33,629 nt of DNA from a virus (lineage: Duplodnaviria > Caudoviricetes), in the IMG/VR virus record IMGVR_UViG_3300027697_000051, positions 1 to 33,629 of that record; one strand, 5' to 3'. Made by a program: the position numbers and the translations under genes. Positions 2,940 through 26,267 of this stretch are shown in pieces; within the stretch, counting starts at the first letter, position 1, and each line of letters begins with the position of its first letter. A model generated the notes under the pieces. It ran no database searches. It saw nothing but the letters and a program-made list of their open reading frames with translations, and had not been told where the DNA came from.

Positions 2940-3596
2940 TTAAATAGGGCCGTTGCTTGATTGCAGGAATGTTACAGTAGCTGAACCGCTTCCGCTATTA
3001 AGCAAAACGCGCGCATATCTTGGCGCGTAAGCAATATAACCAGATTTTGCCGTAGCTTCAGAAACAAGATTTGCGTCTAAAGCGTCAAGCCACGTTACAG
3101 CGCCAATCGCAACAGGACTAAAAGGATCGTTTGGATCTTCTAGCGTCGTTTGCACGCTGTAATTTACCGTGCCGCTAACATCACCCTGAACAGTGATCTG
3201 CCCAGGAGCGAAGTCATCAAAGCGAACCCAGCGAGATCCAGCAACGCCATTTGTGCCTACAGTCACGCCACTAACGCTGGTTGCTGCGCTTGCAGCGACG
3301 CGCGTAACAGTAACGAAATCTAGAGTTGTAGCGACTGAGCTGCCGCTTGTGCCTTGAACGGTTTCAGAGATTGACTGCCCGTTGAACCAAGTGCCGTAAA
3401 CCGTAAACGTGACGGCGCTATCATTGCCGACATTGGTTATTAAAATCTGGCGCGGCTCATCAAGGATAGCAACGCCGCCAGTAACAAGTGAACCGTTAAG
3501 CGTTAAGTTCGCTGCTCCAGCTGTTGTCTGATTTAATGCAATATTGTTGGCTGATGCCGAAGCAAGAGGGCCGACGGTAACAGTAAGAGCTTGCAT
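2940..3596 (-). CDS. Putative virion structural protein (beta-rich, Thr/Ala/Ser/Gly-rich)
   Basis: 218 aa ORF in the structural operon, TGATG coupling. Confidence 0.6.
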   Translation of the reverse strand: MQALTVTVGPLASASANNIALNQTTAGAANLTLNGSLVTGGVAILDEPRQILITNVGNDSAVTFTVYGTWFNGQSISETVQGTSGSSVATTLDFVTVTRVAASAATSVSGVTVGTNGVAGSRWVRFDDFAPGQITVQGDVSGTVNYSVQTTLEDPNDPFSPVAIGAVTWLDALDANLVSEATAKSGYIAYAPRYARVLLNSGSGSATVTFLQSSNGPI

Positions 3597-3769
3597 CAGC
3601 GTTTTCCTTTTGTCTTTCCAACGCGCGCGGCGGCGACATTATCAACCAAATTTGGATAAGGCCGTCCGGCGGCTCTTGCCCTGGCTTTGGCTATCTTAAC
3701 ACCTTTTGCGCTTAAAGCCTTGTGCTTTGCGTCTTTCGGCGCATCTTTTTCCCAAAACGGCTTGCTCAT
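3596..3769 (-). CDS. Small basic protein (RPYPNLVDN motif)
   Basis: Start reassigned to ATG 3769 (TGATG overlap with upstream gene); Lys/Arg-rich. Confidence 0.65.
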   Translation of the reverse strand: MSKPFWEKDAPKDAKHKALSAKGVKIAKARARAAGRPYPNLVDNVAAARVGKTKGKR

Positions 3770-4038
3770 CAACAGTCCCATTTTCTGAGTGATTTATTGA
3801 TGCGACTATTTGGATCTGCGGCTTTTGCAGAGCCGGTTAATTTCTTTTTCATACCAGTCATACGACTACAAAATGAAGAACGGCGACCAGCTGCTTTATC
3901 ACTTTTTGCTGCCTGTTCTTTTGAAACTGGCGGCTTTAAATTATGGCCTTCAGCCTTTGCTGATGCGCGGCCCTTAGCGTTTAAGCCGCCTTCAGGGTTT
4001 TTGCCTTCCTTACGCGTCCAAGCAGGAGATTTAGCCAT
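3769..4038 (-). CDS. Small basic phage protein, DUF6321-like
   Basis: MAKSPAWTRKEGKNPEGGLNAKGRAS...RRSSFCSRM...SRINKSLRKWDC; GGAG RBS before ATG 4038. Confidence 0.7.
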   Translation of the reverse strand: MAKSPAWTRKEGKNPEGGLNAKGRASAKAEGHNLKPPVSKEQAAKSDKAAGRRSSFCSRMTGMKKKLTGSAKAADPNSRINKSLRKWDC

Positions 4039-4048
4039 GTCTTTCTCC

Positions 4049-4083
4049 AAAAAACCGACGGAACTCTTAAAAAAGTTCCGTCG
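4049..4083 (-). terminator. Intrinsic terminator
   Basis: 10-bp stem CGACGGAACT/AGTTCCGTCG followed by T6 on the minus strand. Confidence 0.7.
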
Positions 4084-4100
4084 ACTTCGCAACAGACAAC

Positions 4101-4310
4101 TCAATAATGAGAAGCCTTACCGCGTGGCGTGCCAGCTTTAGCTGACGAAAATACGCCGCCGCCTGAAGCGCGAGCAGGCTTTTTGCCCTTTGCAGCTTCA
4201 GACATTACAGCTTTGCCGCCTTTTTTCATGCAGCCGCCGCCCTTTTTAAAGCCGTCGGTCTTGTCTTCAGCTTCTTTAATTGTGCTGGCTTTGCCTTTGT
4301 AAGCACCCAT
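4101..4310 (-). CDS. Small Lys/Gly-rich protein with three xxGG motifs (putative internal head protein)
   Basis: FKKGGG, MKKGGKA, RASGGGV; AGGAG RBS. Confidence 0.65.
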   Translation of the reverse strand: MGAYKGKASTIKEAEDKTDGFKKGGGCMKKGGKAVMSEAAKGKKPARASGGGVFSSAKAGTPRGKASHY

Positions 4311-4798: not shown

Positions 4799-4867
4799 CT
4801 GCACAAGGTTTAATTACGTCGTCTGTGCAGCGTCCGCTTGGCCGGTCGACGTAACTGGATTGCCAAG
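4799..4867 (-). ncRNA. Candidate multi-pseudoknot cis-regulatory RNA abutting the RBS of the 4784 gene
   Basis: Three interleaved perfect helices: CTTGGC/GCCAAG, TTACGTCG/CGACGTAA, CTGCACA/TGTGCAG. Confidence 0.55.
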
Positions 4868-5566
4868 ATCTACATTATCAACGTGTTTATCAAGATAAGC
4901 AATCGCTGATAATAAGATTGTTTTGTCTTCTTTAAACTTTCCTATTCCTTGGTTACAAGCTTCACAAAGAAGACCGCGAACCTTACCTGTTGTGTGGCAA
5001 TGATCTACAGCCAAAGCTTTAATGTTGCCGTTTCTATTGCCACCTGACTCACTACCGCAAATTGCACACTTGCCATTTTGAGCCATATACATCTGACTAT
5101 ACTCTAGCAGAGATATACCATATTTGCGTTGCAAATCTTTATCGGCATAGTCTGTTTTGTATATACGTCGATGCTCTTTGTAATATTCAGGACTATGACT
5201 ATCTATCCTATTTGGATGAGCCACGGTCGCTAAACTTTGGCTTAAAGATAGATTGTCAGCTTTTAAATTTAACGGGTTATTATCGTTAAATTTAATTCTT
5301 CCATTAGGCCATTCCCCATTTATTAAAACCCAAGCTATACGCGCTGAAGGAATGTTTTGATTTCCTATGCGAATATAACCGTATGATACAGGGTTGCCTT
5401 CTTTGTCTTTACGGGTTGCCTTTACACAACCTGCAATCTCGCCTGCGTAAACATTCTTTGCTGGCGATTTAGACCAATAAACAGCCCCAGTATCTGGGTC
5501 GTAAGAAAGAAATTCTTTGACTAAATCAACGGATATGTCTTCAACTTTTGGCATTTCAGTCTCCAT
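4814..5566 (-). CDS. Free-standing homing-type endonuclease: degenerate HNH-like N-terminal domain plus endonuclease VII-like C-terminal domain
   Basis: YGISLLEY...QNGKCAICG...LAVDHCHTTGKVRGLLCEACNQGIG is the EndoVII signature; AT-rich relative to flanks; has its own promoter. Confidence 0.85.
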   Translation of the reverse strand: METEMPKVEDISVDLVKEFLSYDPDTGAVYWSKSPAKNVYAGEIAGCVKATRKDKEGNPVSYGYIRIGNQNIPSARIAWVLINGEWPNGRIKFNDNNPLNLKADNLSLSQSLATVAHPNRIDSHSPEYYKEHRRIYKTDYADKDLQRKYGISLLEYSQMYMAQNGKCAICGSESGGNRNGNIKALAVDHCHTTGKVRGLLCEACNQGIGKFKEDKTILLSAIAYLDKHVDNVDLGNPVTSTGQADAAQTT

Positions 5567-5713: not shown

Positions 5714-6628
5714 TTAAGAAGTTGGGAAACTGCCGTAGATGCTACGGAAGTTATAATACCCAAACGAATACCGCTCATAACCTTTAACAAGAAGGTTATC
5801 GGTTACGAAATCCACCTGGAGATCACTTTCGAACTTCACGCGTTCCATGTAAGACAAGCCATCAATGTTGGTTAGCAAGAACCAAGCATAAGCAGAGGTC
5901 AAGAAGTCGTTGACCATGTAGCCTTCTGGCAAGCCGCCAGCCGTCATCATGATCGCATTGACATCATTGTCCGCTGTGCCTGGGCGCAATTCGGTCTTTG
6001 TCAGACGAATTGCAACTGGCTCCAACTGTGGCGGAACAACAAGACGACGACCGCGAGCGAAGATCTTTAGACCAGCTTGATCTTTGAAATTCGTTCTGAT
6101 CGAAATCATGCCATTCAACAGCGTGCTTTCGTTGAGATCGACATCAACCGTAGGACGGTTAGCAACAGTGCCGCCGTCGATTGGATGGTCGGTCGCGCAG
6201 AGAGCTTTGCCGTCACCGCCGATTGACGCGTTATACGTCGTGGCAGTGTTAAGCACGTTCGCGCCATAGATTTCTTTGGTCTGATGGAAGCTTTCAATCA
6301 GGCCAAGGTTTGACGGCATAAACTGTGACTTATACAGATTGTCGTCGATTGCTTTACGCGTAATCGCATAGCCCAGAGCAATTTCAGTGTGCTCTTGGTT
6401 ATAGACGTAGCGTTCGCCAGCATTGTTGTCGAATGCGGTCTGACCGCCTTCTGTCTTCAGCTGAGCGAGACCCAGAAAGCGCATTTCAGCTGTGCGCTCA
6501 AGAGCCATTTTACTGTCGTGCTTCGTGAAGATCTTGTCGTATTGCGACGGGATCTGCTCGTATTTGCCTTCAATCCCACGGAGACCGGGGAGGAGAAGGT
6601 CTTTGATGGCAGAGAGATTAACAGCCAT
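5714..6628 (-). CDS. Major capsid protein (HK97 fold, Mu gpT-like family)
   Basis: 304 aa; LLLPGL..., IALGYAITRKAIDDNLY, LVVPPQLE, ERYSFG..NFRSIYGS; position after scaffold and decoration genes. Confidence 0.88.
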   Translation of the reverse strand: MAVNLSAIKDLLLPGLRGIEGKYEQIPSQYDKIFTKHDSKMALERTAEMRFLGLAQLKTEGGQTAFDNNAGERYVYNQEHTEIALGYAITRKAIDDNLYKSQFMPSNLGLIESFHQTKEIYGANVLNTATTYNASIGGDGKALCATDHPIDGGTVANRPTVDVDLNESTLLNGMISIRTNFKDQAGLKIFARGRRLVVPPQLEPVAIRLTKTELRPGTADNDVNAIMMTAGGLPEGYMVNDFLTSAYAWFLLTNIDGLSYMERVKFESDLQVDFVTDNLLVKGYERYSFGYYNFRSIYGSFPTS

Positions 6629-7974: not shown

Positions 7975-8898
7975 TTAACGTCCGATTTTGCCTTCTTTTT
8001 GAAGCGCAACCATATGCTTTGCGTATTCATTTTCAGTCATGCCAAGCATTTGCGCTGTATCCGCCTGCTCTCGCGTTAAGCGAACAACATTTGATCGTTG
8101 ATTGCTGCGCGATACAGGAGCTGGCGGAGGCTGGGGAGCCCGCTTAGGAGCGGGCGCAGCAGCTTCTGATGCAGGCTCAGGAGCTTCACGCTTACGCAAG
8201 CCAAGACGGCTTTCAACAAACGCAAAATATTCATCAGTATCAGTTGTAATGCCTTCATCAATAGCATCTTCATGAGCACGAAACATGCGTCGGATCTCAC
8301 GCTCGCTTGATAAGTTAGACTTATTCTCTCTCAACCAAGCAGCAGAACGTGGTGACGTGTTTTGAGCCATTTGCTCTATTGCATCAGCAGGCGTTGGTGG
8401 AACAGGACGCACGGGTTGACGTTGCGCAGCCTCTTCTGCTTCTTTCATTGCTTGTTTCATGGCAGTTTCGCCACGCTTTAGCTCTGCAAGCTGCTGAGAG
8501 TTTACTGTTATTGCGTCAATTAACTCCGCAGTCTTATCTGCGTCGCCAACAATCGTCGCTTCCTTATAAGCAGCCTTTAATGCGTCGCTTCTATCTTTAA
8601 GCGTCTCTATTGCATTAACGACAAGCTGATAATTTGCGTCTTTTACATCATTATTTGCGCGCTCAGCACGCAAATTTGATTGATAAGCCTGCTTTTCAGC
8701 TTCAATACGCGCCTGTTTTTCTGCTTCAAGACGTCTTTTTAACTCTTGAATGCCTTCTTCTGGCTCAATAATAGAAGTTTTTTCTATTTCAGGAGCCGCT
8801 TCAGCCTTTTCTTCTACAATTTCTACTTCAGGCTCGTCTTTTTTCTCTAATTTTGGCTCATCTAAGACAACTTCAACGTGATCTTCTTCTTCAGACAT
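7975..8898 (-). CDS. Putative capsid scaffolding protein
   Basis: Acidic N-terminus, long coiled coil, Pro-rich linker, C-terminal VRLTREQ...LGMT..EYAK; lies upstream of MCP. Confidence 0.6.
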   Translation of the reverse strand: MSEEEDHVEVVLDEPKLEKKDEPEVEIVEEKAEAAPEIEKTSIIEPEEGIQELKRRLEAEKQARIEAEKQAYQSNLRAERANNDVKDANYQLVVNAIETLKDRSDALKAAYKEATIVGDADKTAELIDAITVNSQQLAELKRGETAMKQAMKEAEEAAQRQPVRPVPPTPADAIEQMAQNTSPRSAAWLRENKSNLSSEREIRRMFRAHEDAIDEGITTDTDEYFAFVESRLGLRKREAPEPASEAAAPAPKRAPQPPPAPVSRSNQRSNVVRLTREQADTAQMLGMTENEYAKHMVALQKEGKIGR

Positions 8899-8910
8899 CA
8901 ATTTTCTCCA

Positions 8911-9303
8911 TTACCATGCAGTATCTGGCGTCGGAATGCGCATTTTTACTTGCGTATCGGACAGCATTCGGCACAAAACACCATTAATTGTGATGCTCCA
9001 GCCATCTGACGGGCGATAAACAAGCCAATCATGCAAGTTAAAGCTTGCATTATTAAACCATTGACCGCTGTCATCTTGAAAAGCAGCTGGACCCATGCCT
9101 ACAAGAAGGCCAACTTTGCCTTGGAACTTATCTTCTTCAGCATATTTATCAGTTAAATACAGGCCGCTTTTTGTTTTTGTCGGGCGCACATAGACGGCGA
9201 CAAGGATTTGATTATTGAAAAGCTCGACTTGCGAAAGATCGCCAATCTCATCAAGCAATTTTTGTTTTGGATCACCATCGTGAGCCATGATTAGTGCAGA
9301 CAT
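8911..9303 (-). CDS. GroES/Cpn10-like co-chaperonin
   Basis: NNQILV...TKTKSGLYL (mobile loop) ...GLLVGMGPAAF...GWSITINGVLCRML. Confidence 0.8.
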   Translation of the reverse strand: MSALIMAHDGDPKQKLLDEIGDLSQVELFNNQILVAVYVRPTKTKSGLYLTDKYAEEDKFQGKVGLLVGMGPAAFQDDSGQWFNNASFNLHDWLVYRPSDGWSITINGVLCRMLSDTQVKMRIPTPDTAW

Positions 9304-9609: not shown

Positions 9610-10728
9610 TTACTTACCGCGACCTTTTTGCGCTTTAGCGATGTCTGTCTTCTGCAAACGACCCTCGCCATTAGCCGCACCAGCAGTCATGTCCTTGTAG
9701 GACTTGGCTACCTTAGAAATACGTCCGCCATCTTTTTTAGCAGGCGCATCTTTGTGTAACTTAGCAATATCGGTCTTTTGAAGGCGACCCTCACCAGATC
9801 CTGAACCAGCTTCCATATCCTTGTAGGATTTGGCAATCTTTGTGATGCGACCACCGGCCTTGCGCTCAGGAGGCATAGGACCACGAGGTGGCATTGCTGG
9901 AGGCATAGCGCCAGGAGGCATAGGCGGCATTGCCGGAGGAGCGCCAGCAGCTGGCGGCATTGGCATAGGCATTGGCGGAGCTGGCGGAGGAGCCATTACA
10001 TCAGCCGGAGGCATTTGCTGCCCTTTGCCCGTGGCAATAACAATATTGATGTTTGTCTTGCCTTTGCCAGCTGACTTCTTGCTAGCCTTTTTCATGCCAG
10101 CCATATCAAGCGTAGCGCCGCCTGTAGCGCGAGCCGTGCGTCCGCCCTTCTTATAAGGCGACATCATGCGATCGAGCTTGTCAGTGTCGCTGCTTTTCAT
10201 CTTGCGATAATCAACGGCGATGTTCTTTGATGGATCAGGCATGCCTTCCTGCTGCTTTTGAGCAGGCGAGCGATAGCCCGTAAGCTTGTTTAACTTCTCA
10301 GCTAAACCACCGCCTTCAGCTTTGCCGCCGCGCTTATAATGCTGGGCCGCTTCGCGCTTTGGCTTAATCTTCATCGCGCCAATTGTTTTAGGTGTGGATA
10401 ACGTTTCTTCAGCTGAAGGGATTTTGCCGCCATCTTTGCGAGCAACTTTGCCGCCTTTTTTCATGCCGCCAATGTGCTTCACGCCTTCGCGGTCTTCATT
10501 TGCGACCTTCATATTCTTATTGGCCATCTGCGTGCCAATGTTGCCGGTGACCTTGCCGCCAGACTTATACGCGCGACGCGACAGCGGGCGCATGCCCGTC
10601 TTGGCTTCAGCGTTCAGCGGTTCAGCTGGGCTCCAATCAGAGCTATCAACCTTAGTATCTTTTTCGCTCGCCAAGCGGCGGGCTTTAGACTTCAAAGCCT
10701 CGCGGGCTTTCTTGGCAAAATCAGACAT
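9610..10728 (-). CDS. Basic low-complexity protein with about nine xxGG motifs (putative internal head/core protein)
   Basis: Lys-rich, Pro/Met-rich tract, duplicated C-terminal unit GGRI.K.AKSYKDM.AG...GEGRLQKTDIAK. Confidence 0.75.
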   Translation of the reverse strand: MSDFAKKAREALKSKARRLASEKDTKVDSSDWSPAEPLNAEAKTGMRPLSRRAYKSGGKVTGNIGTQMANKNMKVANEDREGVKHIGGMKKGGKVARKDGGKIPSAEETLSTPKTIGAMKIKPKREAAQHYKRGGKAEGGGLAEKLNKLTGYRSPAQKQQEGMPDPSKNIAVDYRKMKSSDTDKLDRMMSPYKKGGRTARATGGATLDMAGMKKASKKSAGKGKTNINIVIATGKGQQMPPADVMAPPPAPPMPMPMPPAAGAPPAMPPMPPGAMPPAMPPRGPMPPERKAGGRITKIAKSYKDMEAGSGSGEGRLQKTDIAKLHKDAPAKKDGGRISKVAKSYKDMTAGAANGEGRLQKTDIAKAQKGRGK

Positions 10729-10764: not shown

Positions 10765-13700
10765 CTATGCCCGCGCGTGCGGGAGGTTAGATACTACATC
10801 AAGAGCGCGACTAATGACAGCGCCGCCGTCTTGATAAAGCGGCATTTCTGCTTTTACCAAGCCACGCTCGACGACATCCTTCGGCGAAAGACCCGTGATG
10901 CGAGACGTGCGCTCAATTGCTTCATTGACGTTCTGGATCATTGGTTGCGCTTTATAACCGCCTTTTGTTCTAAGATCTTTTCCTCCAGCCCATGCAACTT
11001 CCTGGAAGTAACGCGGATCAACATTGAATTGACGCGCAAGATCATGAAGCGATCCTTCGTAATGACCATAGGTTCTATCAGTTGGATTAGACATCTTTGG
11101 ATCATACATGCGCGACATCTGCTCATCGATTGTTGCGCCATGCGGTATGCCAAGGAAGTTGTAAGCGAAATTATAACGCTTTGGATTGTCGTGACCGATA
11201 CCCTGGCCTTCTAAAATCATCTTACGAAATTGGTCCATGTTTGAACCGGCGAAACGCCCGCCGACAGGAAACGGAAAGTTATAAGTTTGCTCAGGAACTT
11301 TCTCGCCCGTGTTTTTTAAAACGTTTCCGTAATGCGCCATCATTAAATTTGTTGTCGGATCAGCGCCGCCTGTTGTCGCTGCCATTGCATCCGCAAAACG
11401 TTCTTTGAAAAGCTCGCGACCGCGCTCAGGCCCATAATTATTGATAAACTCTTTTTCTAGCTGACCCATAAGATACCAGTCGCCAGCTTGGCGTGCTTGG
11501 CCAAGACCGCGCTCATACGCGCCAGTCAATCGCTCAATTGCTTCTGGCGAACGTGCGTGCGCTTCATACTTTGCTTGCGTGTCTGGCTTTGCTTTTCTGA
11601 TATCAAGCGTCGATGTGTATTCAGGATAATTTAACGGATCAACATCAAAGCGTGCTTCAGGATCAAAGTATGGTTTGAAGTCGCCTTTGTTAATTGCTTT
11701 CTGTGCTGCTTGGCGCGCTTTAAGAACAAGCTCGCCTTCTGGGCTCAGCGTCTTTTCAAGATATGGCTTGCCTGTAACCTTGTCGATCGCAGGAACTGGC
11801 TCACCTGGTTCTGCGTAACGCCTAGATGCACCAGGGAATAATTCATCAAGCGGACGAATAATTGCAGGAGCTGAAGGTTCTTCTTTAGCAATATTAGCCG
11901 CAGCTTTTATTGCTTTAGCAATTACACCGCCCTTGTCGTATCCAAGGCGGTTCTGGCTAAGTTGATGCGTGTTTGAGAAAAGCGGCGCAACAGAATATGT
12001 CCAAAGCGCAAGCCTGCGGAAAAACTGTTCGTCGTCAGCGCGTGGTATGTTTTTCACGGGGCCTCCATCAGCGAACAAGTGCTCGCCAAAATCCTTTGAA
12101 ACTCTCTCGCCTCTTCTCTCAAACGGAGCTGCGTAAGTTGATACGTCTTTGATGCCCATATCGCGCAGGATAGGGCTAACATCTTTATATACTGCTTCTG
12201 GAACAACAGCTCCCGCAAATTCGTCAAAGCCAACAGCGCGCTGTGGTTTCCCTTCAAAATACATTGCAGGCATTTTGCGGATATTTTCTAAATGACCTAT
12301 TGCAGCGTTAATGTCTTCTTGCGGAGCTTCTGGATAAAAGTGCCGCCACTCATCCATATTTCTAGATCCAAGCGCCTCGCCAAAATACCCTTGTGCATTT
12401 GAAGTATCGTAAGGTAATTTTTCATTTGCATGCCAATGGAGAAGGTTTGCTAATCTTTCATGCTCATTTTCAAGAGCCTCTGCTTTTTCCTTCCACTCAT
12501 GCATTGGAACGATATTGTCTCTTGCTCTTTTTATTTCTTCAAAATTTTTAAATGCAGGAGCTTGCTCAGCCATTATAACACCAAGCTCTTTTGTCCTGTC
12601 TGTGGTATCTCCTCTCCAAAATTCTCCGCCAATTATTGGTCTGCTTTGCATATGATCAAGAACGTTTTCTAATGTTACAGGCACAACTTTATCTCGTGCG
12701 TCGCTGTAAAATGTCCCTTCTTTTTTACCTTCAATATAAGGAAATCTTGGCGTAAAAGCATCTTGACGGAATATTGGGTTTTCAAAAGATGGTTCAGCTA
12801 AATGCTTGCGACCAACAAACGTAATATTTCCAAAGTTAGAATTATCTAACAGTGGTTTTGTAATAGCCAAACTTGGGCTTGGGAACGCGCCTAATTCCTT
12901 TAATTGCGGCAATACATAATCTGATACGCCATGTATAACGCCCATCTTTTCTGATGGCGCAATTACACGAGCCGCAGCCTGCAATGCTTTAGCAATCGCT
13001 CCGCCTTTGTCGTAATGAGGGACTTCGCCACCATCTGCGCGGCGGATATCTGGATTAAGCGGGTCAAATGTTCCAATGTTTCCTGTTGCAGATTTTATCT
13101 GCCGTGGATCTGTGGCGATATAAACATTTTGATGCTCAAATTCTCGCGTGCTTCCTTTTGGAATAATAACGCTGTCGTATCCTTGATCTTTTATCCAATG
13201 ATGCAATTTCTCATAGGCTTCTGGAGCAGGTTTATAATATTTTTTTCTAGGCGTTGACTGGAAAGCATCAACTACTGTTGGTCCTATTTCTTTAGCCTTG
13301 CCTAACAGATCGTCAAAAGTGGCCGACATTGGTTTTTGTATATTAAGATAAACAGGATAAATTGCGCCTTCGTCAGACGAATAAAGCCCCGCTCCTCGTT
13401 CGCCAGGATTGTCTGAGAACCATGAGCCAATTGTATCTACCCATTGAGGTCTTTTAACTTGAGTGACCGACGCCATGCGGTCGAACTCATTAAAGTCACC
13501 AAGACTTCTGTCTCCACGATCCCAGACTACTGTCCCGTGATAGAGCCTGCGAGGATCGCCCGCTTCATCAACTGCTTTGCTGCCGGAAAACCATTTTTTA
13601 AAGTTTGGATTTTCTAACAAGTGCAATGCTTTTTTGACTACTTCTCCGCCTTCTGCGCGTCTACTGCGGATATATTCATCAACATTAACGCCTTCAGCTG

Positions 13701-15954
13701 GCGGCTCTGCCATCGTCCAGTCAGGCATCACGCCCGTCTTTTGATCGGCATAATATGTATCAGCGCCTTTTGCTGCGCGATTGCGCTCTGCCATATCGCC
13801 AAAGTTCACCCAGCTATTTTGCCCGCGCGTCTCTGACGTTAACGCTGGACGAGCTTCTGGCGAGAACATGCGCTTGTGCAATTGGAATGCGCGCTCTTCA
13901 CCAGGCGCGCGGAAGAACGGATTGCCTGGACCAAAATGCCCATAAAGATCGTGGATCACGCGGAAGGCGTCGTTAACAACGGCGTCTTCCTTGTCGCCTA
14001 TGCGTCCAGCGCCTTTTAGAAGCACGTTGGATGCGTTAATGCCACCGGTGCTGCCAAAGCCAGCTTCAGTTGGATAAACGAACAGGCGGCCTCTATTAAC
14101 GAGGTCCTCATAACCAAGAGCTGGGCTTGCCGCATACGGATCAGCCTGACCTGGCTTCAGGAATTTAATGTCGAGCCCCAGATCTTTAGCGGCTCTGTAT
14201 TGCTGCATCGTCTCATCAGCAAGAGCCTGGAACGCGCGCTTAACAATTGGATCTTGCGGATCATGCCGCATGACGTCGTATTCTTGCGCAACGCGTTTTG
14301 AGAACTCAGGGTTTAATGGCGTAACGTCTGCACCATGCGCTTCTCCTGCAAAGCGGCGCGCAATGCTTTCGATCTCAGGTATTGGTCGGCTTTCTACTTT
14401 GCCAATGCCGGGCAAGTTAACAAGCTCAGGAAAGCCTTTGCGTGGCGCGTATCCTGATCCTGGTGCCATCAGCTTGCCAAGAAACTTGGCAATTGCGCCA
14501 CCTTTGTCGTAGCCTTCTACGTCGCCGCCTTTTGAGTAGCGGCGCGTGATGTCGACAAGGTTAGGGTCGAACATGACATAGTTGCGTGAGCCGCTGCCTG
14601 CCCCGCGTGACATACGATCTAAATATTTAATGCCAGGGATACCCAACCTTTTTGCAGTTTCAGTCGCGCCTTCATAATTAAATTGATGAGGAGCAAGAGA
14701 TTGATAAAAAGTCTCGCCACTTGGTATTTCACCCTCACGCATGTCGCTTAATAAATCCGACAATGCTTCTTTTGATGTATATTTATTCTTATTAAAATAA
14801 GACATCATATCCGATAAATCGGTCGGCTCGTCGCTTTCCCAAGCGCGAGCGAAGTCTGTTTCTTCTGCTCTTCTTTGAGCCTCCAGCTGCTTTGAAAAAT
14901 CCATAAGCTTCTGTTCGCCGCCCATCTCATCAACATATTGATTGAGGCCGCGAATAATATGCGGTTGATTGGTAACTGGCTTGTCCCAATCAATAAGATG
15001 TTCTGGATTTGCATGAAGATTGACTTCATACATATGACCAGCAACTTCAGGATTTGTATTTACGATATTGCGCGCTTCCATAAGTCTTTGCGCGCCTTCG
15101 TAAGATCCGCCAGATTGCAGTGATGTATTCGCCCTATTGCGCAGCTCAGCAAGAGCAGCATCTCTATCGCCTCTTGTCGCGTGCAATACTCTTGCTGCAA
15201 TATCCTCTGGACGATCACCGCGACCATACGGCGATAAAGCTTCTCTGTAAGCGTGAGCAACTTCTGGGTTCTCAGCAAAATACAACCCGTGCCCATATGC
15301 TTGAGCGCCTTCGCCCGTTCCTATTTTACTAATATCAAACCGATCGAACTTGTGCGGGCTTCCATGATACGCGCGTATTGCTTTCAACGCTCGATCAACA
15401 ACGCCTGCTTGTGCTTCTTCTGGTAAAAGCGCAGCGCCAGCAACTGCCGCAGCTTTTGCCGCGCGGCCCATGCCAGGCAATGCCAGTGCCGCATTAACGA
15501 CATCCTCTGCGCCACGGTCTTTTGATGCAAGGCCTCTTGCGGCATTAGCAAGATCATACGCCATCAGACCCTGGCCAGCATACGGAATGCTATAAGCGGC
15601 GAGATGGCCAAGCTCCTTAGCGCCCTCTTGCCACGCGCGCACGTTCTCTCGATCGTATTGCGGAAGCTGCGGTTCGTCTTTGTTCAATTGATGACGAATA
15701 AACTCTGACGCAGAAGACGCGGGTCGATCGCGATTTACCTCTAATGCTTGCGCGGCAGTAGGCGCAGCATACTTCTCAACAACTGGCGATGGCCTGTAAG
15801 TATCACCGTATAATTGCTCTTGGACAAAATCATGCGCGCGCTGCGTGTCTTCAGGAACTCCGCCATCAGCCATTACTTGTCGCCCAACATTGGGCAAGTA
15901 GTGTGTGGGATATTGGTCTGCGAGGAGCTTTGCTTTGCGCGGTCGCTTTGCCAT
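10765..15954 (-). CDS. Large polyvalent protein with ADP-ribosyltransferase-like, zincin-like and other modules (putative packaged/ejected effector)
   Basis: 1729 aa directly after portal; YHGSPHKFDRF...GLYF; FKKWFSGSKAVD...YHGT...YPVYL...GYDSVI...QIKSATGN.GTFDP; HDLYGH...GEE; modules separated by xxGG linkers. Confidence 0.8.
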   Translation of the reverse strand: MAKRPRKAKLLADQYPTHYLPNVGRQVMADGGVPEDTQRAHDFVQEQLYGDTYRPSPVVEKYAAPTAAQALEVNRDRPASSASEFIRHQLNKDEPQLPQYDRENVRAWQEGAKELGHLAAYSIPYAGQGLMAYDLANAARGLASKDRGAEDVVNAALALPGMGRAAKAAAVAGAALLPEEAQAGVVDRALKAIRAYHGSPHKFDRFDISKIGTGEGAQAYGHGLYFAENPEVAHAYREALSPYGRGDRPEDIAARVLHATRGDRDAALAELRNRANTSLQSGGSYEGAQRLMEARNIVNTNPEVAGHMYEVNLHANPEHLIDWDKPVTNQPHIIRGLNQYVDEMGGEQKLMDFSKQLEAQRRAEETDFARAWESDEPTDLSDMMSYFNKNKYTSKEALSDLLSDMREGEIPSGETFYQSLAPHQFNYEGATETAKRLGIPGIKYLDRMSRGAGSGSRNYVMFDPNLVDITRRYSKGGDVEGYDKGGAIAKFLGKLMAPGSGYAPRKGFPELVNLPGIGKVESRPIPEIESIARRFAGEAHGADVTPLNPEFSKRVAQEYDVMRHDPQDPIVKRAFQALADETMQQYRAAKDLGLDIKFLKPGQADPYAASPALGYEDLVNRGRLFVYPTEAGFGSTGGINASNVLLKGAGRIGDKEDAVVNDAFRVIHDLYGHFGPGNPFFRAPGEERAFQLHKRMFSPEARPALTSETRGQNSWVNFGDMAERNRAAKGADTYYADQKTGVMPDWTMAEPPAEGVNVDEYIRSRRAEGGEVVKKALHLLENPNFKKWFSGSKAVDEAGDPRRLYHGTVVWDRGDRSLGDFNEFDRMASVTQVKRPQWVDTIGSWFSDNPGERGAGLYSSDEGAIYPVYLNIQKPMSATFDDLLGKAKEIGPTVVDAFQSTPRKKYYKPAPEAYEKLHHWIKDQGYDSVIIPKGSTREFEHQNVYIATDPRQIKSATGNIGTFDPLNPDIRRADGGEVPHYDKGGAIAKALQAAARVIAPSEKMGVIHGVSDYVLPQLKELGAFPSPSLAITKPLLDNSNFGNITFVGRKHLAEPSFENPIFRQDAFTPRFPYIEGKKEGTFYSDARDKVVPVTLENVLDHMQSRPIIGGEFWRGDTTDRTKELGVIMAEQAPAFKNFEEIKRARDNIVPMHEWKEKAEALENEHERLANLLHWHANEKLPYDTSNAQGYFGEALGSRNMDEWRHFYPEAPQEDINAAIGHLENIRKMPAMYFEGKPQRAVGFDEFAGAVVPEAVYKDVSPILRDMGIKDVSTYAAPFERRGERVSKDFGEHLFADGGPVKNIPRADDEQFFRRLALWTYSVAPLFSNTHQLSQNRLGYDKGGVIAKAIKAAANIAKEEPSAPAIIRPLDELFPGASRRYAEPGEPVPAIDKVTGKPYLEKTLSPEGELVLKARQAAQKAINKGDFKPYFDPEARFDVDPLNYPEYTSTLDIRKAKPDTQAKYEAHARSPEAIERLTGAYERGLGQARQAGDWYLMGQLEKEFINNYGPERGRELFKERFADAMAATTGGADPTTNLMMAHYGNVLKNTGEKVPEQTYNFPFPVGGRFAGSNMDQFRKMILEGQGIGHDNPKRYNFAYNFLGIPHGATIDEQMSRMYDPKMSNPTDRTYGHYEGSLHDLARQFNVDPRYFQEVAWAGGKDLRTKGGYKAQPMIQNVNEAIERTSRITGLSPKDVVERGLVKAEMPLYQDGGAVISRALDVVSNLPHARA

Positions 15955-18329
15955 TACATTACCTCACCCGGCGGTGGATCTTCTTTGCTCTTCAGCGTTC
16001 TCAATGTCTCAGGGTCGATGACCTTGGTCATTTCTTTAAAGCCACCTGGCGTTTTCAATACATCTTGCGCAAGCTTAACGGCAGCAATGCGCTCGCTGCT
16101 TTCGCGATCCTTGCGCCGGTTCCAGTTATCAAGCTCATTGTCTTTTTCGTTCATGCGCTCGATTTGCAATCTGCTTGTAATATCCATTTTCTTCATTTGA
16201 AGATCAGCTTCTTGCTGCTGCATCTCCGCCTTCTTGATCTGCAAATCAATCAGCTTATTTTGATCAATCGGCGTGCCTTCGGGCGATCCTTCAGACTGGA
16301 TCTTGGCTTGCGTTTCAGCGATCTTTGCCTGCGCCAACATCTGCTTCGTATCAGCGTCCTGCTTCTTGATTTGCAACTCCGCCATCTTGGCTTGCGCTTC
16401 TGGTGGCGGAACTGGCGGAGCTGGAGCCGCAATAAACTGCTCTGGATTACTCCAGCCCATTGCACGCAACGCAGCTTTGTCAATTGCGACCGCATCAAAC
16501 ATGCCAGGGTTTGCCTGCTGCAATTGCTTCAACGCCATGATCTTCATCACGCGCTGCGTATGGCTTGCGGTGTTTGGATCTGCCTGTGGCACAAGCTCAT
16601 AATCATTAACTGCCTGGTTAAAGATCTGCTCGTTCCATTGCAGAGATGGGCCTTTTAGTTTTTTCCAGAAGCTATCTGGGTGCTCGCGGAAGCAACGCAC
16701 TAGCAACTGAAACTCATCAGCTTGCGAAGCATGCATGCGCTTGTGAACGGCGTTCATGACCTTTGTTGCCTGGTCAATCAGCGCCAACGTCGTTCCGACC
16801 GGCGCGTCCTGGCGTCCCTCGCCAACATTCAATTCGCTCGTTCCGCCAACGCGCTGACCGGCTTCGACAATGTTTTGCGTTAGATTGAAGAGCGCCTGTC
16901 CTGGCTCTTTGTATGGCAATGGCATGATGGCTTGGTTGATGGGCATGCCACCTGTCTTGACCAATGCTCCGCCTCCCGGAGGAACGCGGAATAGGTTCGT
17001 GTTCTGACGGGCACCCGTATCCGCCATGAGGAACCCTGGGAAGTTGGCATACATGCCAGCATCCAGCATCTCGCGCCACGCGGCAGTAACCGCGTTTGTG
17101 GTATTACCCAGAATATGAAGTAAACCAATATCGTAAAAACCCATACCGGGCACAAAAGTATATTTGACAAAATTGTTCCGCGCTTCAGGCAGCTCGTTGC
17201 CTTCGTCTCCGGTTGGCTCATCGTAGTTTCTCACGATCGAGAGAACCTCTCTCGAAGAAACGTCGATTGTAACACGATACGGGATTTCTAGCCCCGTGAT
17301 TTTGCCTTTGTATTTGTGCTCCAGGCCAGGGACATCGAGTTCGCAATAGACTTCGTAGATCTCGCGATCGCGATCGTCAGGATTGCGGGCCTCGATAGAT
17401 ACGCCTTGCTGATCAGCCTTCTCGCGCTGGACAGCGTCATGCTGCTCCATGCGCGGCGTCGAGAGATCGATGTCGCGGTAGACGCCAAGGATCTGCAAGC
17501 GTTTAACCGTCGACGACCGCATGAAGACGCGATGCGTGACGCGCTTTGCGTCCTCTAACGTCGTGGCCGCGTTATTGACGATGAGATCGTCCGCATCCAC
17601 CGTTTCGCTGACCGGGCGACCGCGTAAGGGGCAGAAATAGACCTTTTTGAAAGCCGTTCCGCCGAAACCCAGCATAAACAGCATCCGGTCAGTATCAGGA
17701 TAGTATTCCTTGGCGACCGCTGTGAGGTAGGCATTGAGATCTTTTTCCAAGGCTTCAGCAAGAAAGTCCTGCTGCATGGTTGTGCCGACACTGTCGACGC
17801 GCACTTTGACCGGCCCGTCTGTCGGCAGCATTTCGCTGCGGCTGTTGGCCTGGAAGCGGAGCACCGCCTCAAGCAGCAATGGATGGCGGACGCGGCTCAT
17901 GCCGTCGACCGGCGCGCCGTCTGCTGCGCCTTGCAGCTGTGGCAGCTCGATCTTCAAGCCCAGGAGCTTGATGCCCTGAGCGCGATCCTCGATCCAGTCC
18001 TGGCGGCTATCAAGATCGTCCTGCACGCCGCGCAATAGGTCGTCGGCGATCATGTTCAAAGAGCCCTGGTCAATGTCTTCGACCAGATTGCCAAACCAAT
18101 TTGCGGCGCGCTCTGCGTCTGACGCCTCGTCGACCGGGCGTCCATCAAGAGAGATACTGACGGAGCCGTCTTCGTGCTCGATGCGCACGATATTGCCTTT
18201 GTCGTCTGTCTGGTGCTTGGGCGCGCCTTCTTCGATCTCAACCATGACGTCTTCAGCAGACGCGAGACCCTCCGGGGGCTCCTCCTGCTGCATGCGGATG
18301 TTTGGTGAAAGCCCCGGTGTCATTGGCAT
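15954..18329 (-). CDS. Portal protein
   Basis: 791 aa; HPLLLEAVLRFQA, GTAFKKVYF, GFYDIGLLH, PVGTTLALI; follows terminase. Confidence 0.85.
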   Translation of the reverse strand: MPMTPGLSPNIRMQQEEPPEGLASAEDVMVEIEEGAPKHQTDDKGNIVRIEHEDGSVSISLDGRPVDEASDAERAANWFGNLVEDIDQGSLNMIADDLLRGVQDDLDSRQDWIEDRAQGIKLLGLKIELPQLQGAADGAPVDGMSRVRHPLLLEAVLRFQANSRSEMLPTDGPVKVRVDSVGTTMQQDFLAEALEKDLNAYLTAVAKEYYPDTDRMLFMLGFGGTAFKKVYFCPLRGRPVSETVDADDLIVNNAATTLEDAKRVTHRVFMRSSTVKRLQILGVYRDIDLSTPRMEQHDAVQREKADQQGVSIEARNPDDRDREIYEVYCELDVPGLEHKYKGKITGLEIPYRVTIDVSSREVLSIVRNYDEPTGDEGNELPEARNNFVKYTFVPGMGFYDIGLLHILGNTTNAVTAAWREMLDAGMYANFPGFLMADTGARQNTNLFRVPPGGGALVKTGGMPINQAIMPLPYKEPGQALFNLTQNIVEAGQRVGGTSELNVGEGRQDAPVGTTLALIDQATKVMNAVHKRMHASQADEFQLLVRCFREHPDSFWKKLKGPSLQWNEQIFNQAVNDYELVPQADPNTASHTQRVMKIMALKQLQQANPGMFDAVAIDKAALRAMGWSNPEQFIAAPAPPVPPPEAQAKMAELQIKKQDADTKQMLAQAKIAETQAKIQSEGSPEGTPIDQNKLIDLQIKKAEMQQQEADLQMKKMDITSRLQIERMNEKDNELDNWNRRKDRESSERIAAVKLAQDVLKTPGGFKEMTKVIDPETLRTLKSKEDPPPGEVM

Positions 18330-22206: not shown

Positions 22207-22407
22207 ATGACCAAGCTGACGAAGCCTATCCCAGGCAGCCACCTGCACGAATACTCAGACATGCTCATAAAAGAGCTGATCAAGCTTTGGCGGGAACTGC
22301 GACCAGCCTCTGCCGCTCCAGAGGTGTATGACACGCTGATTGACGACGCGTTTAAGGTTTTGGGATATCGCTGCGCTGTTGAATATGTAGAAAAATATGG
22401 AGATTGA
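22207..22407 (+). CDS. Hypothetical protein
   Basis: Starts at the ATG of one 15-mer and stops at the TGA of the next. Confidence 0.65.
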   Translation: MTKLTKPIPGSHLHEYSDMLIKELIKLWRELRPASAAPEVYDTLIDDAFKVLGYRCAVEYVEKYGD

Positions 22408-22408
22408 T

Positions 22409-22762
22409 ATGAACATTGAGAACATTGCACGCATCGAGCGCTCTATCGTCAAGACTATTATCCAGGATGCCCTGGATTTTGGTTACGTTGTCATGCACCA
22501 CAATGGCGAGGAGGCGACGATCACTGTGCATCCAAGCGATGATCGCGAAAAAGCTGTCAGTGATATAATGGACGAAATTCGTCAATGCGACGAAGAGCAG
22601 CTAATTTTTTCAGACCCAAAAGATTGGCCTGGCAAACGCGTTGGTTTTGTTTTTCTAGTTTACGGAAACGATGGCTACGACGTAATATGCGACCACACTG
22701 ATAGTGAAGAGATGGATCAAATCCTTGCAGGCGCAAACGAGCTTGCATCAAAATACGAGTAG
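22409..22762 (+). CDS. Acidic hypothetical protein
   Basis: 15-mer start; GFVFLVYGNDGYDVICDHT. Confidence 0.7.
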   Translation: MNIENIARIERSIVKTIIQDALDFGYVVMHHNGEEATITVHPSDDREKAVSDIMDEIRQCDEEQLIFSDPKDWPGKRVGFVFLVYGNDGYDVICDHTDSEEMDQILAGANELASKYE

Positions 22763-22766
22763 TAAA

Positions 22767-22973
22767 ATGAAACTAACGTCCTTCATGAAAATGCTTCTTG
22801 AATACGAAGAGCTTGGCATGAAGATCACGAGCAATACGGAATTGATCATCATATACGGTCACACCGGCAAGTTGGTTATTCCGTTTGCTCAAATCTATCA
22901 CTGGCGCATAGGAGACTTGAGAAGAAGCTTACGCAATTTAAGAGACAAATCAAAAGACGAGCAGCAAGCATGA
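22767..22973 (+). CDS. Hypothetical protein
   Basis: Fills the gap, ATGA overlap with next gene. Confidence 0.5.
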   Translation: MKLTSFMKMLLEYEELGMKITSNTELIIIYGHTGKLVIPFAQIYHWRIGDLRRSLRNLRDKSKDEQQA

Positions 22974-23203
22974 CACAAGACGAAAACATTTACATTGATC
23001 ATCTAAAATATGTGCGATGTAGATCAATTGGACTAATTAAAGAAGCTGCTGAAAAGCTATGGCGATCTCCAGATAGTATGGAGCACGCGCAGACAATACA
23101 AAACGAGTTGAACAAATATATCCAAGCGCAATTAGAATTAAGCGAAATCACAGATGGAGATCGATATGTTAGTAAAACAACCAACCACACAAAAGAACCC
23201 TGA
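22970..23203 (+). CDS. Hypothetical protein
   Basis: 77 aa helical. Confidence 0.5.
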   Translation: MTQDENIYIDHLKYVRCRSIGLIKEAAEKLWRSPDSMEHAQTIQNELNKYIQAQLELSEITDGDRYVSKTTNHTKEP

Positions 23204-23351
23204 GACGCTTGCTGATCGCATTAATCGCTTGGCCTGGGCGGATGACGTCCAGGATCGGGTAAAGCTCAAGACCATGTTTGGTCAGGCCCGTCGCAGGGCA
23301 AAAGAAAAGCCCGTTACACTGCCCAAGCTATCCTGGATGAAAGACGCTTGA
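23166..23351 (+). CDS. Hypothetical basic protein
   Basis: Variant 15-mer start; ends KPVTLPKLSWMKDA. Confidence 0.6.
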   Translation: MLVKQPTTQKNPETLADRINRLAWADDVQDRVKLKTMFGQARRRAKEKPVTLPKLSWMKDA

Positions 23352-23376
23352 CAGGTAGAAGTAACTTCTATACGAA
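23348..23376 (+). promoter_or_regulatory. Early promoter with TAGAAGTAACTTCTA palindrome (copy 2)
   Basis: TTGACA, 17 bp, TACGAA; 15-bp perfect palindrome at 23356-23370. Confidence 0.7.
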
Positions 23377-23420
23377 GGAGGGGAGCTGATTTGCTCCCCT
23401 TTATTTTTATGGAGATTGAT

Positions 23421-24941
23421 ATGTCAAAATTTGTCGCATCGCCCCAGCAGGCTGCTTTCCTTGACTGGGTCGTCAAAGGCTCAGGCTCATGCGTTCTTGA
23501 GGCTGTCGCTGGAGCTGGCAAGACAACGACGTTAATTGAGGCAGTCGAGCGCACGCAGGGTTCCGTTGCGCTCCTGGCCTATAACCGCAAGATTGCTGAC
23601 GAGATCAAGGCTAAGCTAAAAAAGCGCGGCATTGACTGGAAGAAGGCTAACGCCAATACGGTTCATGGCTTTGGTCTTGGCGCTTACAAAAAAGCTTTCC
23701 CCAAGGTCCAGGTCAACGGCGGCAAGGTTACCGACATCCTCGTGAAGCTTGGCGAGAAGGCTGCCCCACAGCACCCAGTTCGCATGTTCTCCTCGATCGT
23801 TGCGGATCTTGTCTCGCTCGCGAAGCAGCGCGCTCTTGGCGTCTTTGGCTCGATCGATGACACGTCCAAATGGTATGACATCATCGAGCACTTCGACATC
23901 CTGGGTAACGAGGAGGAGGAAGCTCAAAACCGCGTGGCTGAGATCGTCGAGGCTGCTATCGCAGTGCTCAAGCTTTCAAACACCACAACTGATGTCGTCG
24001 ACTTCGATGATATGGTCTACCTGCCTGTCCTCCTGAAGCTCCGCTTCTGGACCTATCCTTGGGTTTTCGTTGACGAGGCTCAGGACACCAACCCAGCTCG
24101 TCGCGCTCTCGTGAAGGCAATCCTGGCTCCAGGCGGTCGCGTTGTGGCTGTCGGCGATCGTCGTCAGGCGATTTACGGATTTACTGGCGCTGACGCCAAT
24201 GCGCTCGATCTGATCAAGGCTGACTTCAATGCCGTCGACATGCCCCTCACGGTGACCTACCGCTGCCCTAAGAGCGTCGTTAAGGTAGCCCACCGCTGGG
24301 TTAGCCACATACAGGCCCACGAAAGCGCTCCAGAGGGCTCCACGAGCGTTATCGTTCGCGATGACATCTTTGACCGCAATGATCTTGATGGCACGGCTGC
24401 GATCCTCTGCCGCAATACCAAGCCGCTTGTGGCTCTGGCTTTCGAGCTGATCCGCTCAAACATCGCTTGCCGGGTAGAGGGCCGCGACATTGGCAAAGGC
24501 CTTGTGAAGCTCGCAACCAAGTGGAAGACGGTTAAGACGCTGCATGGCCTGGAGACGGCTGTCGCCAAATGGTCAGAGGGTCAGATCGTTCGCGCTAAGG
24601 CTAAGGGCAATGGCGCGATGGCTCAGCAGATTGCCGACCAGGCTGCAACGATGCGCGTGATCACTGAGCAATGCCGTAAAGAGGGCAAGGACAGCATCCC
24701 TGCGGTTGTTGAGCATATCAATGGCCTCTTCGAGGATAACGTCGACAACATGCTGGTGCTCTCCACGATCCACAAATCAAAGGGCCGCGAGTGGGAGACC
24801 GTTTACTGGCTGGATCGCGCCAATACGCTTCCTAGCCCATACGCAACGCAGGACTGGCAGCTAGAGCAGGAAAACAATCTCTGCTACGTCGCGGCGACCC
24901 GCGCAAAGGCATCTCTGATCGAAGTAGTGGTCCCTCACTGA
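23421..24941 (+). CDS. UvrD/Rep-like superfamily 1 helicase
   Basis: AVAGAGKTT, LAYN, FVDEAQD, VGDRRQAIYGFTGA, TYRCP, ILCRNT, STIHKSKGREW, YVAATRAK. Confidence 0.93.
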   Translation: MSKFVASPQQAAFLDWVVKGSGSCVLEAVAGAGKTTTLIEAVERTQGSVALLAYNRKIADEIKAKLKKRGIDWKKANANTVHGFGLGAYKKAFPKVQVNGGKVTDILVKLGEKAAPQHPVRMFSSIVADLVSLAKQRALGVFGSIDDTSKWYDIIEHFDILGNEEEEAQNRVAEIVEAAIAVLKLSNTTTDVVDFDDMVYLPVLLKLRFWTYPWVFVDEAQDTNPARRALVKAILAPGGRVVAVGDRRQAIYGFTGADANALDLIKADFNAVDMPLTVTYRCPKSVVKVAHRWVSHIQAHESAPEGSTSVIVRDDIFDRNDLDGTAAILCRNTKPLVALAFELIRSNIACRVEGRDIGKGLVKLATKWKTVKTLHGLETAVAKWSEGQIVRAKAKGNGAMAQQIADQAATMRVITEQCRKEGKDSIPAVVEHINGLFEDNVDNMLVLSTIHKSKGREWETVYWLDRANTLPSPYATQDWQLEQENNLCYVAATRAKASLIEVVVPH

Positions 24942-25020
24942 GGGGCTTGCTCGCATTCTGCGAATGCTCGAAAGAGCTTCGCAGCCACAAAATATTTTTC
25001 ACTTTTTTTATTTGAGGGGG

Positions 25021-25056
25021 TTGTAATAGGAAGTAACTTCTGCTAGAAGTTATTTC
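25021..25056 (+). promoter_or_regulatory. Early promoter with GAAGTAACTTC palindrome (copy 3) and a second variant site GAAGTTATTTC
   Basis: TTGTAA, 17 bp, TAGAAG; palindrome 25030-25040, variant 25046-25056; T-rich upstream tract. Confidence 0.6.
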
Positions 25057-25085
25057 ATTGAAACACACACTGTATGGAGATTGAT

Positions 25086-25367
25086 ATGTCTAACTTCGCT
25101 TCTCTCGCTGACCGCTACGCTCAAATCAAAGCTGAAGCTGACGCTTGGGCTAAAAAGCTCGAAGAACTCAAAACAGAGATCAAAGAGCTTGGCGTCGAAG
25201 AAATCGTCGGCGACCACTTTACTGTCACCGTTGGCTTGTCAGAGCGCTCAACGCTTGACCAGAAAAAAGTCAAAGAGATCCTCACGCCTGCGCAGATCGC
25301 TGCATGCAACAGCGTGGCGCTGATCACCACGATCCGCGTCAAGGCGTCGACCAAGCTCGCGGCCTAA
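25086..25367 (+). CDS. Hypothetical coiled-coil protein
   Basis: 15-mer start; highly biased codon usage. Confidence 0.7.
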   Translation: MSNFASLADRYAQIKAEADAWAKKLEELKTEIKELGVEEIVGDHFTVTVGLSERSTLDQKKVKEILTPAQIAACNSVALITTIRVKASTKLAA

Positions 25368-25564
25368 TGCGCGTCAAACAAAAATTGGCAGCCCTGTATA
25401 TCGCGGGGCTGCCTTTTCTTTTTTCCGGCGACTTGCTTGTCATTGGCGCAATGATTTTTTGCATGGGCGTTTATTTTGACAACGCGACAACAATTTTCTT
25501 TGGCGTGTATGACATGACGCTTGGCGCTGTTTTTGTTCGCAACACAATTAAATATGGAGATTGA
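25367..25564 (+). CDS. Small membrane protein
   Basis: TAATG coupling; hydrophobic segments; stops within the next 15-mer. Confidence 0.55.
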   Translation: MRVKQKLAALYIAGLPFLFSGDLLVIGAMIFCMGVYFDNATTIFFGVYDMTLGAVFVRNTIKYGD

Positions 25565-25565
25565 T

Positions 25566-26006: not shown

Positions 26007-26007
26007 T

Positions 26008-26256: not shown

Positions 26257-26267
26257 GGGAGATTGAT

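Follow-up and report, generated by a model that had tools for sequence, protein, structure and literature searches.

The stretch analyzed here, a virus record of 33,629 nucleotides (nt) (IMGVR_UViG_3300027697_000051; 33.6 kb, hereafter the window), carries a minus-strand virion operon over its left two-thirds. Immediately behind the portal gene of this operon lies a genuine open reading frame (ORF; 10765..15954, minus strand, as are all features below unless stated otherwise) for a 1729-amino-acid (aa) polyvalent protein, which occupies a variable cargo slot and is predicted to be internal virion cargo. We found that a short di-glycine motif stands at the joints and ends of swappable modules in this protein, that across related loci it is restricted to cargo slot, basic repeat, 69-aa and ejection proteins, and that modules are exchanged at it. 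The explanation that we favor, with moderate confidence, is that [F/Y/R/K/M/H]-[A/K]-x-G-G-x-[V/I] is a loading-and-cleavage signal of virion maturation, cut after its first residue so that x-x-G-G becomes the new N-terminus. A precursor would be loaded into the prohead via terminal tags (motif plus short amphipathic helix). Cleavage at P1|x-x-G-G would follow, still within assembly, and yield about five enzyme modules (23-49 kDa) together with small peptides; for the 1729-aa protein the computed pieces would be 49.1, 31.1, 23.2, 35.3 and 41.1 kDa plus five short peptides. The freed modules would be small enough for portal passage and injection, and cleavage of the basic repeat protein would supply short peptides that neutralise DNA.

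The distribution of the motif was analyzed in a dereplicated sample of 241 related loci by comparing observed with shuffled counts of a broadened pattern. This pattern was enriched 5- to 17-fold in six carrier classes, namely the cargo slot (289 copies versus 22 in shuffled sequences; 90 of 100 proteins), the basic repeat protein (383 versus 23; 52 of 52), the large ejection protein (112 versus 22; 48 of 55), the second ejection protein (38 versus 6; 32 of 33), a doubled-domain protein of the ejection operon (58 versus 5; 31 of 35), and the 69-aa protein (35 versus 2.5; 23 of 23). Zero matches were found in 43 portals, 32 terminases (both subunits), 30 capsid proteins, 63 GroES, 50 adaptors, and 35 GNATs. 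Proteins were assigned to the cargo class by position, and among them are a few unrelated ORFs as well as one near-copy of the protein from the window. Since the pattern was drawn after the cargo proteins had been seen, the fair test consists of the other classes and of an independently trained matrix, which was built from 45 cargo C-termini without use of the pattern. In the other five carrier classes, this matrix found 243, 21, 33, 64, and 29 sites (0.7-8.1 in shuffled sequences), while 11 of 13 control classes had 0 sites, the nozzle had 2, and a 164-aa gene had 5. An earlier note on the window, made from its sequence alone, had suggested such an enrichment scan across relatives as a check, and on this point the note is supported: the motif is confined to predicted internal-virion proteins, where "internal" rests on gene position and annotation. 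A short signal shared by internal head proteins only is also the hallmark of the T4 capsid-targeting sequence with gp21 and of phiKZ gp175, where internal head proteins are loaded and then trimmed at a short shared motif. Those systems encode a prohead protease that cleaves behind Glu, whereas here the signal is also internal and C-terminal, its sequence differs, and no prohead protease was recognised.

Nine copies of a [FYRKM]-x-x-G-G-x-[VI]-type motif are present in the 1729-aa protein, at residues 28, 473, 482, 766, 972, 981, 1294, 1339, and 1707, each of them where the earlier note had located it. The first, MADGGVP (aa 28-34; 15853..15873), closes the N-terminal leader. It is followed by a double motif of YSKGGDV (473) and YDKGGAI (482) at 14491..14538, by RAEGGEV (766; 13639..13659), whose first five residues are those of the phage T5 pb2 cut site R|AEGG, and by a second double motif of RADGGEV (972) and YDKGGAI (981) at 12994..13041. 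FADGGPV (1294) and YDKGGVI (1339), at 11920..12075, flank a 45-aa spacer, and YQDGGAV (1707) precedes a terminal amphipathic helix, with which it forms a C-terminal tag (10768..10836). The strict pattern [YFMR]-x-[DEK]-G-G-x-[VI] is matched by eight of the nine copies (MADGGVP lacks the +2 V/I), whereas 5000 shuffles gave 0.04 matches on average and never more than 2. The claim that the motif marks every module boundary and avoids the modules themselves is too strong. The motif marks most joints and both ends, in linkers, and lies outside all Pfam-placed domains (ART-PolyVal at 796-963 and weakly at ~194-238; PBECR5 from ~1007), but it is missing from the joint near residue 185, and module 5 contains a loose tenth copy (RTKGGYK, 1662).

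In a typical cargo protein, a short helix and then the motif open the chain, and the motif with an I/V-x-x-A-L helix behind it closes the chain. A copy lies at most 45 aa from the C-terminus in 43 of the 82 cargo proteins with complete 3' ends, and in second ejection proteins the motif stands 53-56 aa from the end (29 of 30). The amphipathic helix that had been noticed behind the copies is clear at C-termini, but it is not general: a simple helix pattern was found within 13 aa of 33 of the 289 cargo copies (background 94/3000). An alternative terminal tag, H-P-A-x-x-I-P-G-I/V-H-I, stands behind the motif in place of the amphipathic helix in L239, L205, L263, L246, L204, L238, and L248.

The motif is appended to the enzyme modules and is not part of their folds. 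Stand-alone homologues carry it in 38 of 119 cases for module 5 and 7 of 120 for module 2, nearly always outside the core. When the protein was compared by BLAST with relatives after masking of the motif, 30 of 56 match ends fell within 20 aa of a motif (20% expected), and no match crossed 766, 972/981, 1294 or 1339, while one crossed 473/482. Because masking itself may stop alignments, the test was repeated unmasked and all-against-all among 100 cargo proteins, where 72 of 123 internal match ends were at most 20 aa from a motif versus 14.9 expected. At the DNA level, the loci L036 and L018 share 97% identity as far as a YAAGG copy; at this point a module of ~800 nt is missing from L036, and two further points of divergence and rejoining each fall at another motif copy. 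Relatives gain and lose whole modules at the motif. The three YDKGG copies of the 1729-aa protein form a 26-nt direct repeat at 85%, and the GG codons differ among the motif copies while the residues are kept. The 45-aa spacer between two motifs (…FFRRLALWTYSVAPLF…; window 11938-12072), which is 74% identical to that of L018, recurs in the unrelated cargo proteins L007, L018, L036, L076, L192, and L193, behaving as a mobile mini-module.

Five modules lie behind an N-terminal region of Ala-rich, mildly hydrophobic helices (15400..15870). Module 1 (14539..15399) is ART-PolyVal-like with a large insert (Pfam PF18760, E 3.9e-5, below the cut-off when taken alone). Module 2 (13657..14508), which has no Pfam or PDB match, contains an invariant H-D-x-x-G-H and a downstream Glu, and is a probable zincin-like domain. 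Modules 3 (13039..13656; ART-PolyVal, PF18760, E 3.9e-20) and 4 (12073..13011; PBECR5 RNase-like, PF18814, E 3.2e-11) were both placed above the cut-off. Module 5 (10834..11937), which holds the off-pattern RTKGGYK, belongs to a widespread unnamed family of 564 homologues, with a weak DUF7178 likeness in 2 of 32 aligned members. A profile search for PDB relatives of modules 2 and 5 found none. It is plausible that all five are injected as enzymes of counter-defence or takeover. A second conserved junction, P-E/D-E/D-A-E/Q-A-G/S, was observed at window 15400-15430 (aa ~179-185) and in 14 of 100 cargo proteins (14 observed versus 2.4 shuffled), behind an Ala-rich hydrophobic stretch and ahead of a module-opening helix. 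We take it to resemble the A-x-A site of signal peptidase, and it may be a second processing signal.

The 1729-aa protein adds a new member to the polyvalent class described by Iyer et al. 2017 (PMC5512222), whose multi-domain members are encoded beside portal and terminase genes, are predicted to be packaged and injected, and are in some cases processed. The ART-PolyVal and PBECR domains of that class are matched here by PF18760 (twice) and PF18814 (once) in a single chain, which is encoded in the portal-terminase/virion module at a place that varies between relatives. Its gene context suggests that this protein is likewise packaged in the virion and injected, and the polyvalent protein of phi24B has been detected in virions (10.64898/2026.04.10.717836). 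In contrast to the present family, in which one motif is common to cargo, ejection and basic proteins, the text of PMC5512222 names no recurring inter-domain motif ("glycine" has 0 occurrences in it) and proposes autoproteolysis by MPTase domains.

The register of the proposed cut comes from other phages. The tape measure (tail ruler) protein pb2 of T5 is processed into pb2* and pb2C (PMC10038345, PMC11937500, PMC11937520), and the cut was placed after R1127 (PMC10038345, Linares et al.), with intact masses of 121,683 and 9702 Da obtained without trypsin (PMC11937500, Arnaud et al.). The pb2 sequence reads R1127-A-E-G-G, an x-A-x-G-G core that is identical to copy 766 (RAEGG) and similar to the RADGG, FADGG, and MADGG copies. 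By our recalculation, a fragment that begins with A1128 weighs 9701.7 Da, whereas cleavage behind GG would give 9387.4 Da. Since only the fragment from A1128 fits 9702 Da, the T5 cut lies before A-E-G-G. Unlike the window's protein, pb2 is a tail protein with one site, a small domain behind it and no +2 V/I, and the site is not described as a motif in the text of these papers.

The second data point is cargo C1 (gp45) of crAss001 (PMC10172136, Bayfield et al.), an internal cargo of podovirus type, as the protein described here is predicted to be. By cryo-EM, its residues 425-552 were resolved at the portal, and residues 214-245 were located ~420 Å away in the tail. The pattern x-[AK]-x-G-G occurs in this protein nine times, a number reached by 0 of 1000 shuffles (mean 2.0). 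Two of these copies, in a Gly-rich stretch, are probably due to chance, and the pattern was found in none of 12 other crAss001 virion proteins. Residue 425, with which the portal-bound segment starts, is the Ala of N424|AFGG, and segment 214-245 falls between the copies at 206 and 260. On the other hand, the text of PMC10172136 mentions neither cleavage nor a motif, and the cargo proteins gp46, gp47, and gp49 are without the motif. The four gp45 peptide regions quoted in that text span no motif copy. A third case is gpH of lambda, which is converted into gpH* and gpHC. Its two copies (FATGG at 733, YATGG at 778) adjoin the glycine-rich region that is cut, but the published estimate of about 690-730 does not pin the motif, and its authors state that the cut site and the enzyme are not known (PMC12617516). 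The JBD30 and Douge papers and Xop411 provided no cut mapped at the motif in the texts available, the JBD30 site at 1066 being a software prediction.

Because both hard data points, the T5 mass and crAss A425, say so, we place the proposed bond before x-x-G-G and not after GG. The earlier note had proposed a cut after Gly-Gly by a protease of the African swine fever virus (ASFV) or adenovirus type, a register that is probably wrong in view of the T5 masses, and it knew of no characterised phage system with this motif. Its two basic alternatives, a cleavage site or a loading tag, are the right ones. The statement on characterised systems survives insofar as we found no description of the motif in the literature (among openly accessible papers, only mavirus and adenovirus entries surfaced), but the motif occurs in lambda gpH and crAss001 gp45, and in T5 pb2 a cut has been mapped to it.

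Several observations weigh against a cleavage signal with this register. First, the T5 site is contested in print, since V1148 had been estimated before and trypsin, too, would cut at R1127 (PMC11937520, Ayala et al.). Secondly, the family-trained matrix scores the T5 site at -15.0 and leaves crAss N424 outside its top ten. The low T5 score arises because the +2 V/I and the upstream preferences are missing there, and the matrix is sparse, with two YDKGG copies of the 1729-aa protein also scoring below zero; the T5 and crAss sites share only the five core residues with this family. Furthermore, both of these sites have a small acidic-residue domain with a G-E pair behind the motif, and the window's free copies have no such domain. 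The authors of PMC10172136 modelled gp45 as one intact chain ("cleav" occurs 0 times in its main text and supplement), and residue 425 could be a mere order/disorder boundary. Within the family, the first ART-like module starts near residue 186 behind a joint (~185) that has PEEAQAG and no GG motif, and some stand-alone module-5 proteins stop 8-9 residues behind the motif, which fits a pure tag equally well. Finally, Pfam and PHROG scans of 21 window proteins (a partial genome) found no protease above the cut-off and no match to a clan CE cysteine protease. As to prohead proteases, only the scaffold-like gene gave a signal, to Peptidase_S21 and below threshold (E 0.011), and no invariant catalytic set was found in four small conserved genes. 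A 187-aa gene before the capsid genes was considered as a protease and rejected, since its look-alikes are all unnamed and, with three cultured relatives included, no invariant residues of catalytic type are left.

The leading but unsupported candidate for the cutter is a small conserved domain found behind the motif in tape measure proteins and doubled in the ejection operon; the other candidate is a host protease. The doubled domain has a gene of its own in the ejection operon, which was found in 4 of the 5 relatives searched and in 3 of 3 near-complete ones. Its halves are related to each other at 97% probability, with an invariant R and D in the first and an invariant G-E in the second, as would be expected of a composite site. 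By profile it links to gp66 of Caulobacter phage RW (E 1e-7 and 4e-10), which in turn matches tape measure families. The structural models were confident (predicted local distance difference test, pLDDT, 83.7 and 81.5). Two results on this domain belong with the counter-arguments above: its model matched no solved fold (Foldseek against the PDB, nothing at E<=0.001; VIA, best Z values of 5.0 for the N-terminal helix pair and 3.0 for the core), and homology to the T5, lambda, and crAss domains was not established (lambda E 0.23; T5 no match; crAss probability 0.2% by hhalign). The doubled-domain profiles had no match in the 1729-aa protein, where no small GE-containing domain follows the motif. 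An Atlas link of the domain to crAss_CARG1 (score 0.82) was not borne out by PF25725 (0 of 5 genomes) or by hhalign. As a separate observation, the doubled domain (L082:8103-8684; homologues P0121-P0270) is often the C-terminal part of larger proteins, some of them fused to ART-PolyVal, GNAT or InPase.

Among the alternatives, we consider it possible, though somewhat unlikely, that the motif is a docking tag and nothing else. With or without its helix it would bind a virion partner (portal, inner face of the capsid or doubled domain) and load cargo without ever being cut, and the basic protein, with nine copies, would act inside the virion as a multivalent scaffold. The terminal placement in cargo and second ejection proteins, the proteins that end 8-9 aa behind the motif, the lack of a recognised protease, and the crAss gp45 segment 425-552, which starts at the motif and is bound to the portal wing (PMC10172136), are all in line with such a tag. 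However, T5 pb2 is cut exactly at the motif, a 192-kDa chain should need no internal loading tag at each joint, and double copies 9 aa apart would read more easily as redundant cut sites.

A cut made only after injection, by a host protease that frees the enzymes in the cell, appears unlikely. It would be consistent with the failure to recognise a phage protease and with the sharing of the motif by unrelated phages, and a cited work reportedly, by its title, concerns "selective host involvement" in T5 tail-protein cleavage. Yet T5 and lambda proteins are cut during tail assembly, before infection, and there is no obvious reason for cutting the basic repeat protein after injection. Quite improbable, in our view, is that the motif is just a recombination seam, a relic of gene ends whose internal copies persist via shuffling through short DNA homology with no protein function. 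The breakpoints shared by L018 and L036 and the 26-nt direct repeat are what such a seam would produce, but the residues are conserved in spite of varying GG codons, non-shuffled proteins (ejection and basic repeat proteins) carry the motif as a fixed feature, and it recurs in T5, lambda and crAss001. Module shuffling at the motif is thus better seen as a consequence.

ASFV pS273R and the adenovirus protease mature polyprotein core precursors at a di-glycine signal by cutting after GG, and the invariant GG with a large residue at -3 presumably resembles the adenain site (M/I/L)-x-G-G. A cut after Gly-Gly by such a clan CE protease, or by one of JAB type, is nevertheless hardly credible here, as the T5 mass excludes such a cut for pb2 (9387 versus 9702 observed), the crAss segment, like the mapped T5 register, begins two residues ahead of GG, and no such protease family was matched in the window head genes.

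Two further carriers are encoded in the window, and the earlier note had not listed their copies. The gene next to the cargo protein encodes a 372-aa basic, Pro-rich repeat protein (9610..10728) with nine motif copies, and a 69-aa basic protein encoded after the capsid genes (4101..4310) has three; all homologues of both (52/52 and 23/23) carry the motif. The 372-aa protein contains 77 K+R and 35 D+E residues and a conserved end element, G-S-G-E-G-R-L-x-K, which is duplicated in the window's copy, and its homologues range from about 280 to 945 aa. In the large ejection protein (L082:9188-12745), a Peptidase_S74 self-cleaving chaperone domain (277-327) stands just ahead of the first motif copies, and an SLT domain is also present.

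The virion operon encodes small and large terminase subunits, an SU10/P22-like portal, the 1729-aa and 372-aa proteins, GroES, a scaffold-like protein, the major capsid protein, an adaptor, and a collagen-like fibre. The portal (15954..18329), the major capsid protein (5714..6628), and the GroES-like co-chaperonin (8911..9303) have no motif, and the probable scaffold protein (7975..8901), assigned from its position and coiled-coil character, has it in 1 of 69 homologues. The GroES-like gene sits between the cargo genes and the scaffold and is kept as far as HTVC023P, CRP-901, and RW. An HNH/endonuclease VII homing-type gene (4814-5566) is inserted after the capsid gene, in a slot that is empty or holds other inserts in relatives. 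Two small basic genes (3769-4104 and 3596-3781; DUF6321 and PHROG 34011) encode domains that recur at the C-termini of longer phage proteins, behind a motif copy in HTVC023P gp43, and are possibly further cargo tags. A plus-strand cluster (22397-26686) holds small genes and a UvrD-like helicase; several of its ORFs start with the same M-E-I-D-M peptide, which suggests a repeated DNA element at their starts.

By capsid and portal, the cultured relatives are Pelagibacter phages HTVC023P/027P, Roseobacter phages CRP-901/902, and RW-like phages of Caulobacter, at 30-41% identity. A much closer capsid protein (89% identical) is found in MW202675, a complete 61-kb genome from spring water. Because this genome carries genes for nozzle, GNAT, and internal virion proteins and none annotated as a tape measure, the uncultured phage of the window would be short-tailed, of the podovirus type. 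The family is very common, with about 1800 stored stretches estimated in IMG/VR for the capsid query. The capsid gene was also found on 20 contigs of metagenome-assembled genomes from unrelated taxa, which look like mis-binned phage contigs.

A broader reading, which we put forward tentatively and consider rather unlikely as a whole, is that one undescribed signal, P1|x-x-G-G, operates across tailed phages. It would trim the tape measures of T5 and lambda, split crAss cargo C1 into capsid and tail pieces, and, when multiplied, make the cargo slot of this freshwater podovirus family a polyprotein with plug-in modules, each carrying a tag, packaged and then released by cleavage. Cleavage would occur in trans, through a peptidase with a new fold, namely the small Asp/Glu domain that follows the motif. 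What the present analysis contributes is the class-by-class census, the exact register from the T5 mass, and the coincidence with crAss A425. If the cut is real, it would provide testable answers to where and how lambda gpH is cut (PMC12617516) and to how crAss001 gp45 can be in the capsid and the tail at once (PMC10172136), and it would make available a small, transferable tag with which proteins could be loaded into phage particles. It would also explain how 200-kDa polyvalent proteins pass the portal, and the module boundaries of thousands of unannotated phage proteins would become readable from sequence.

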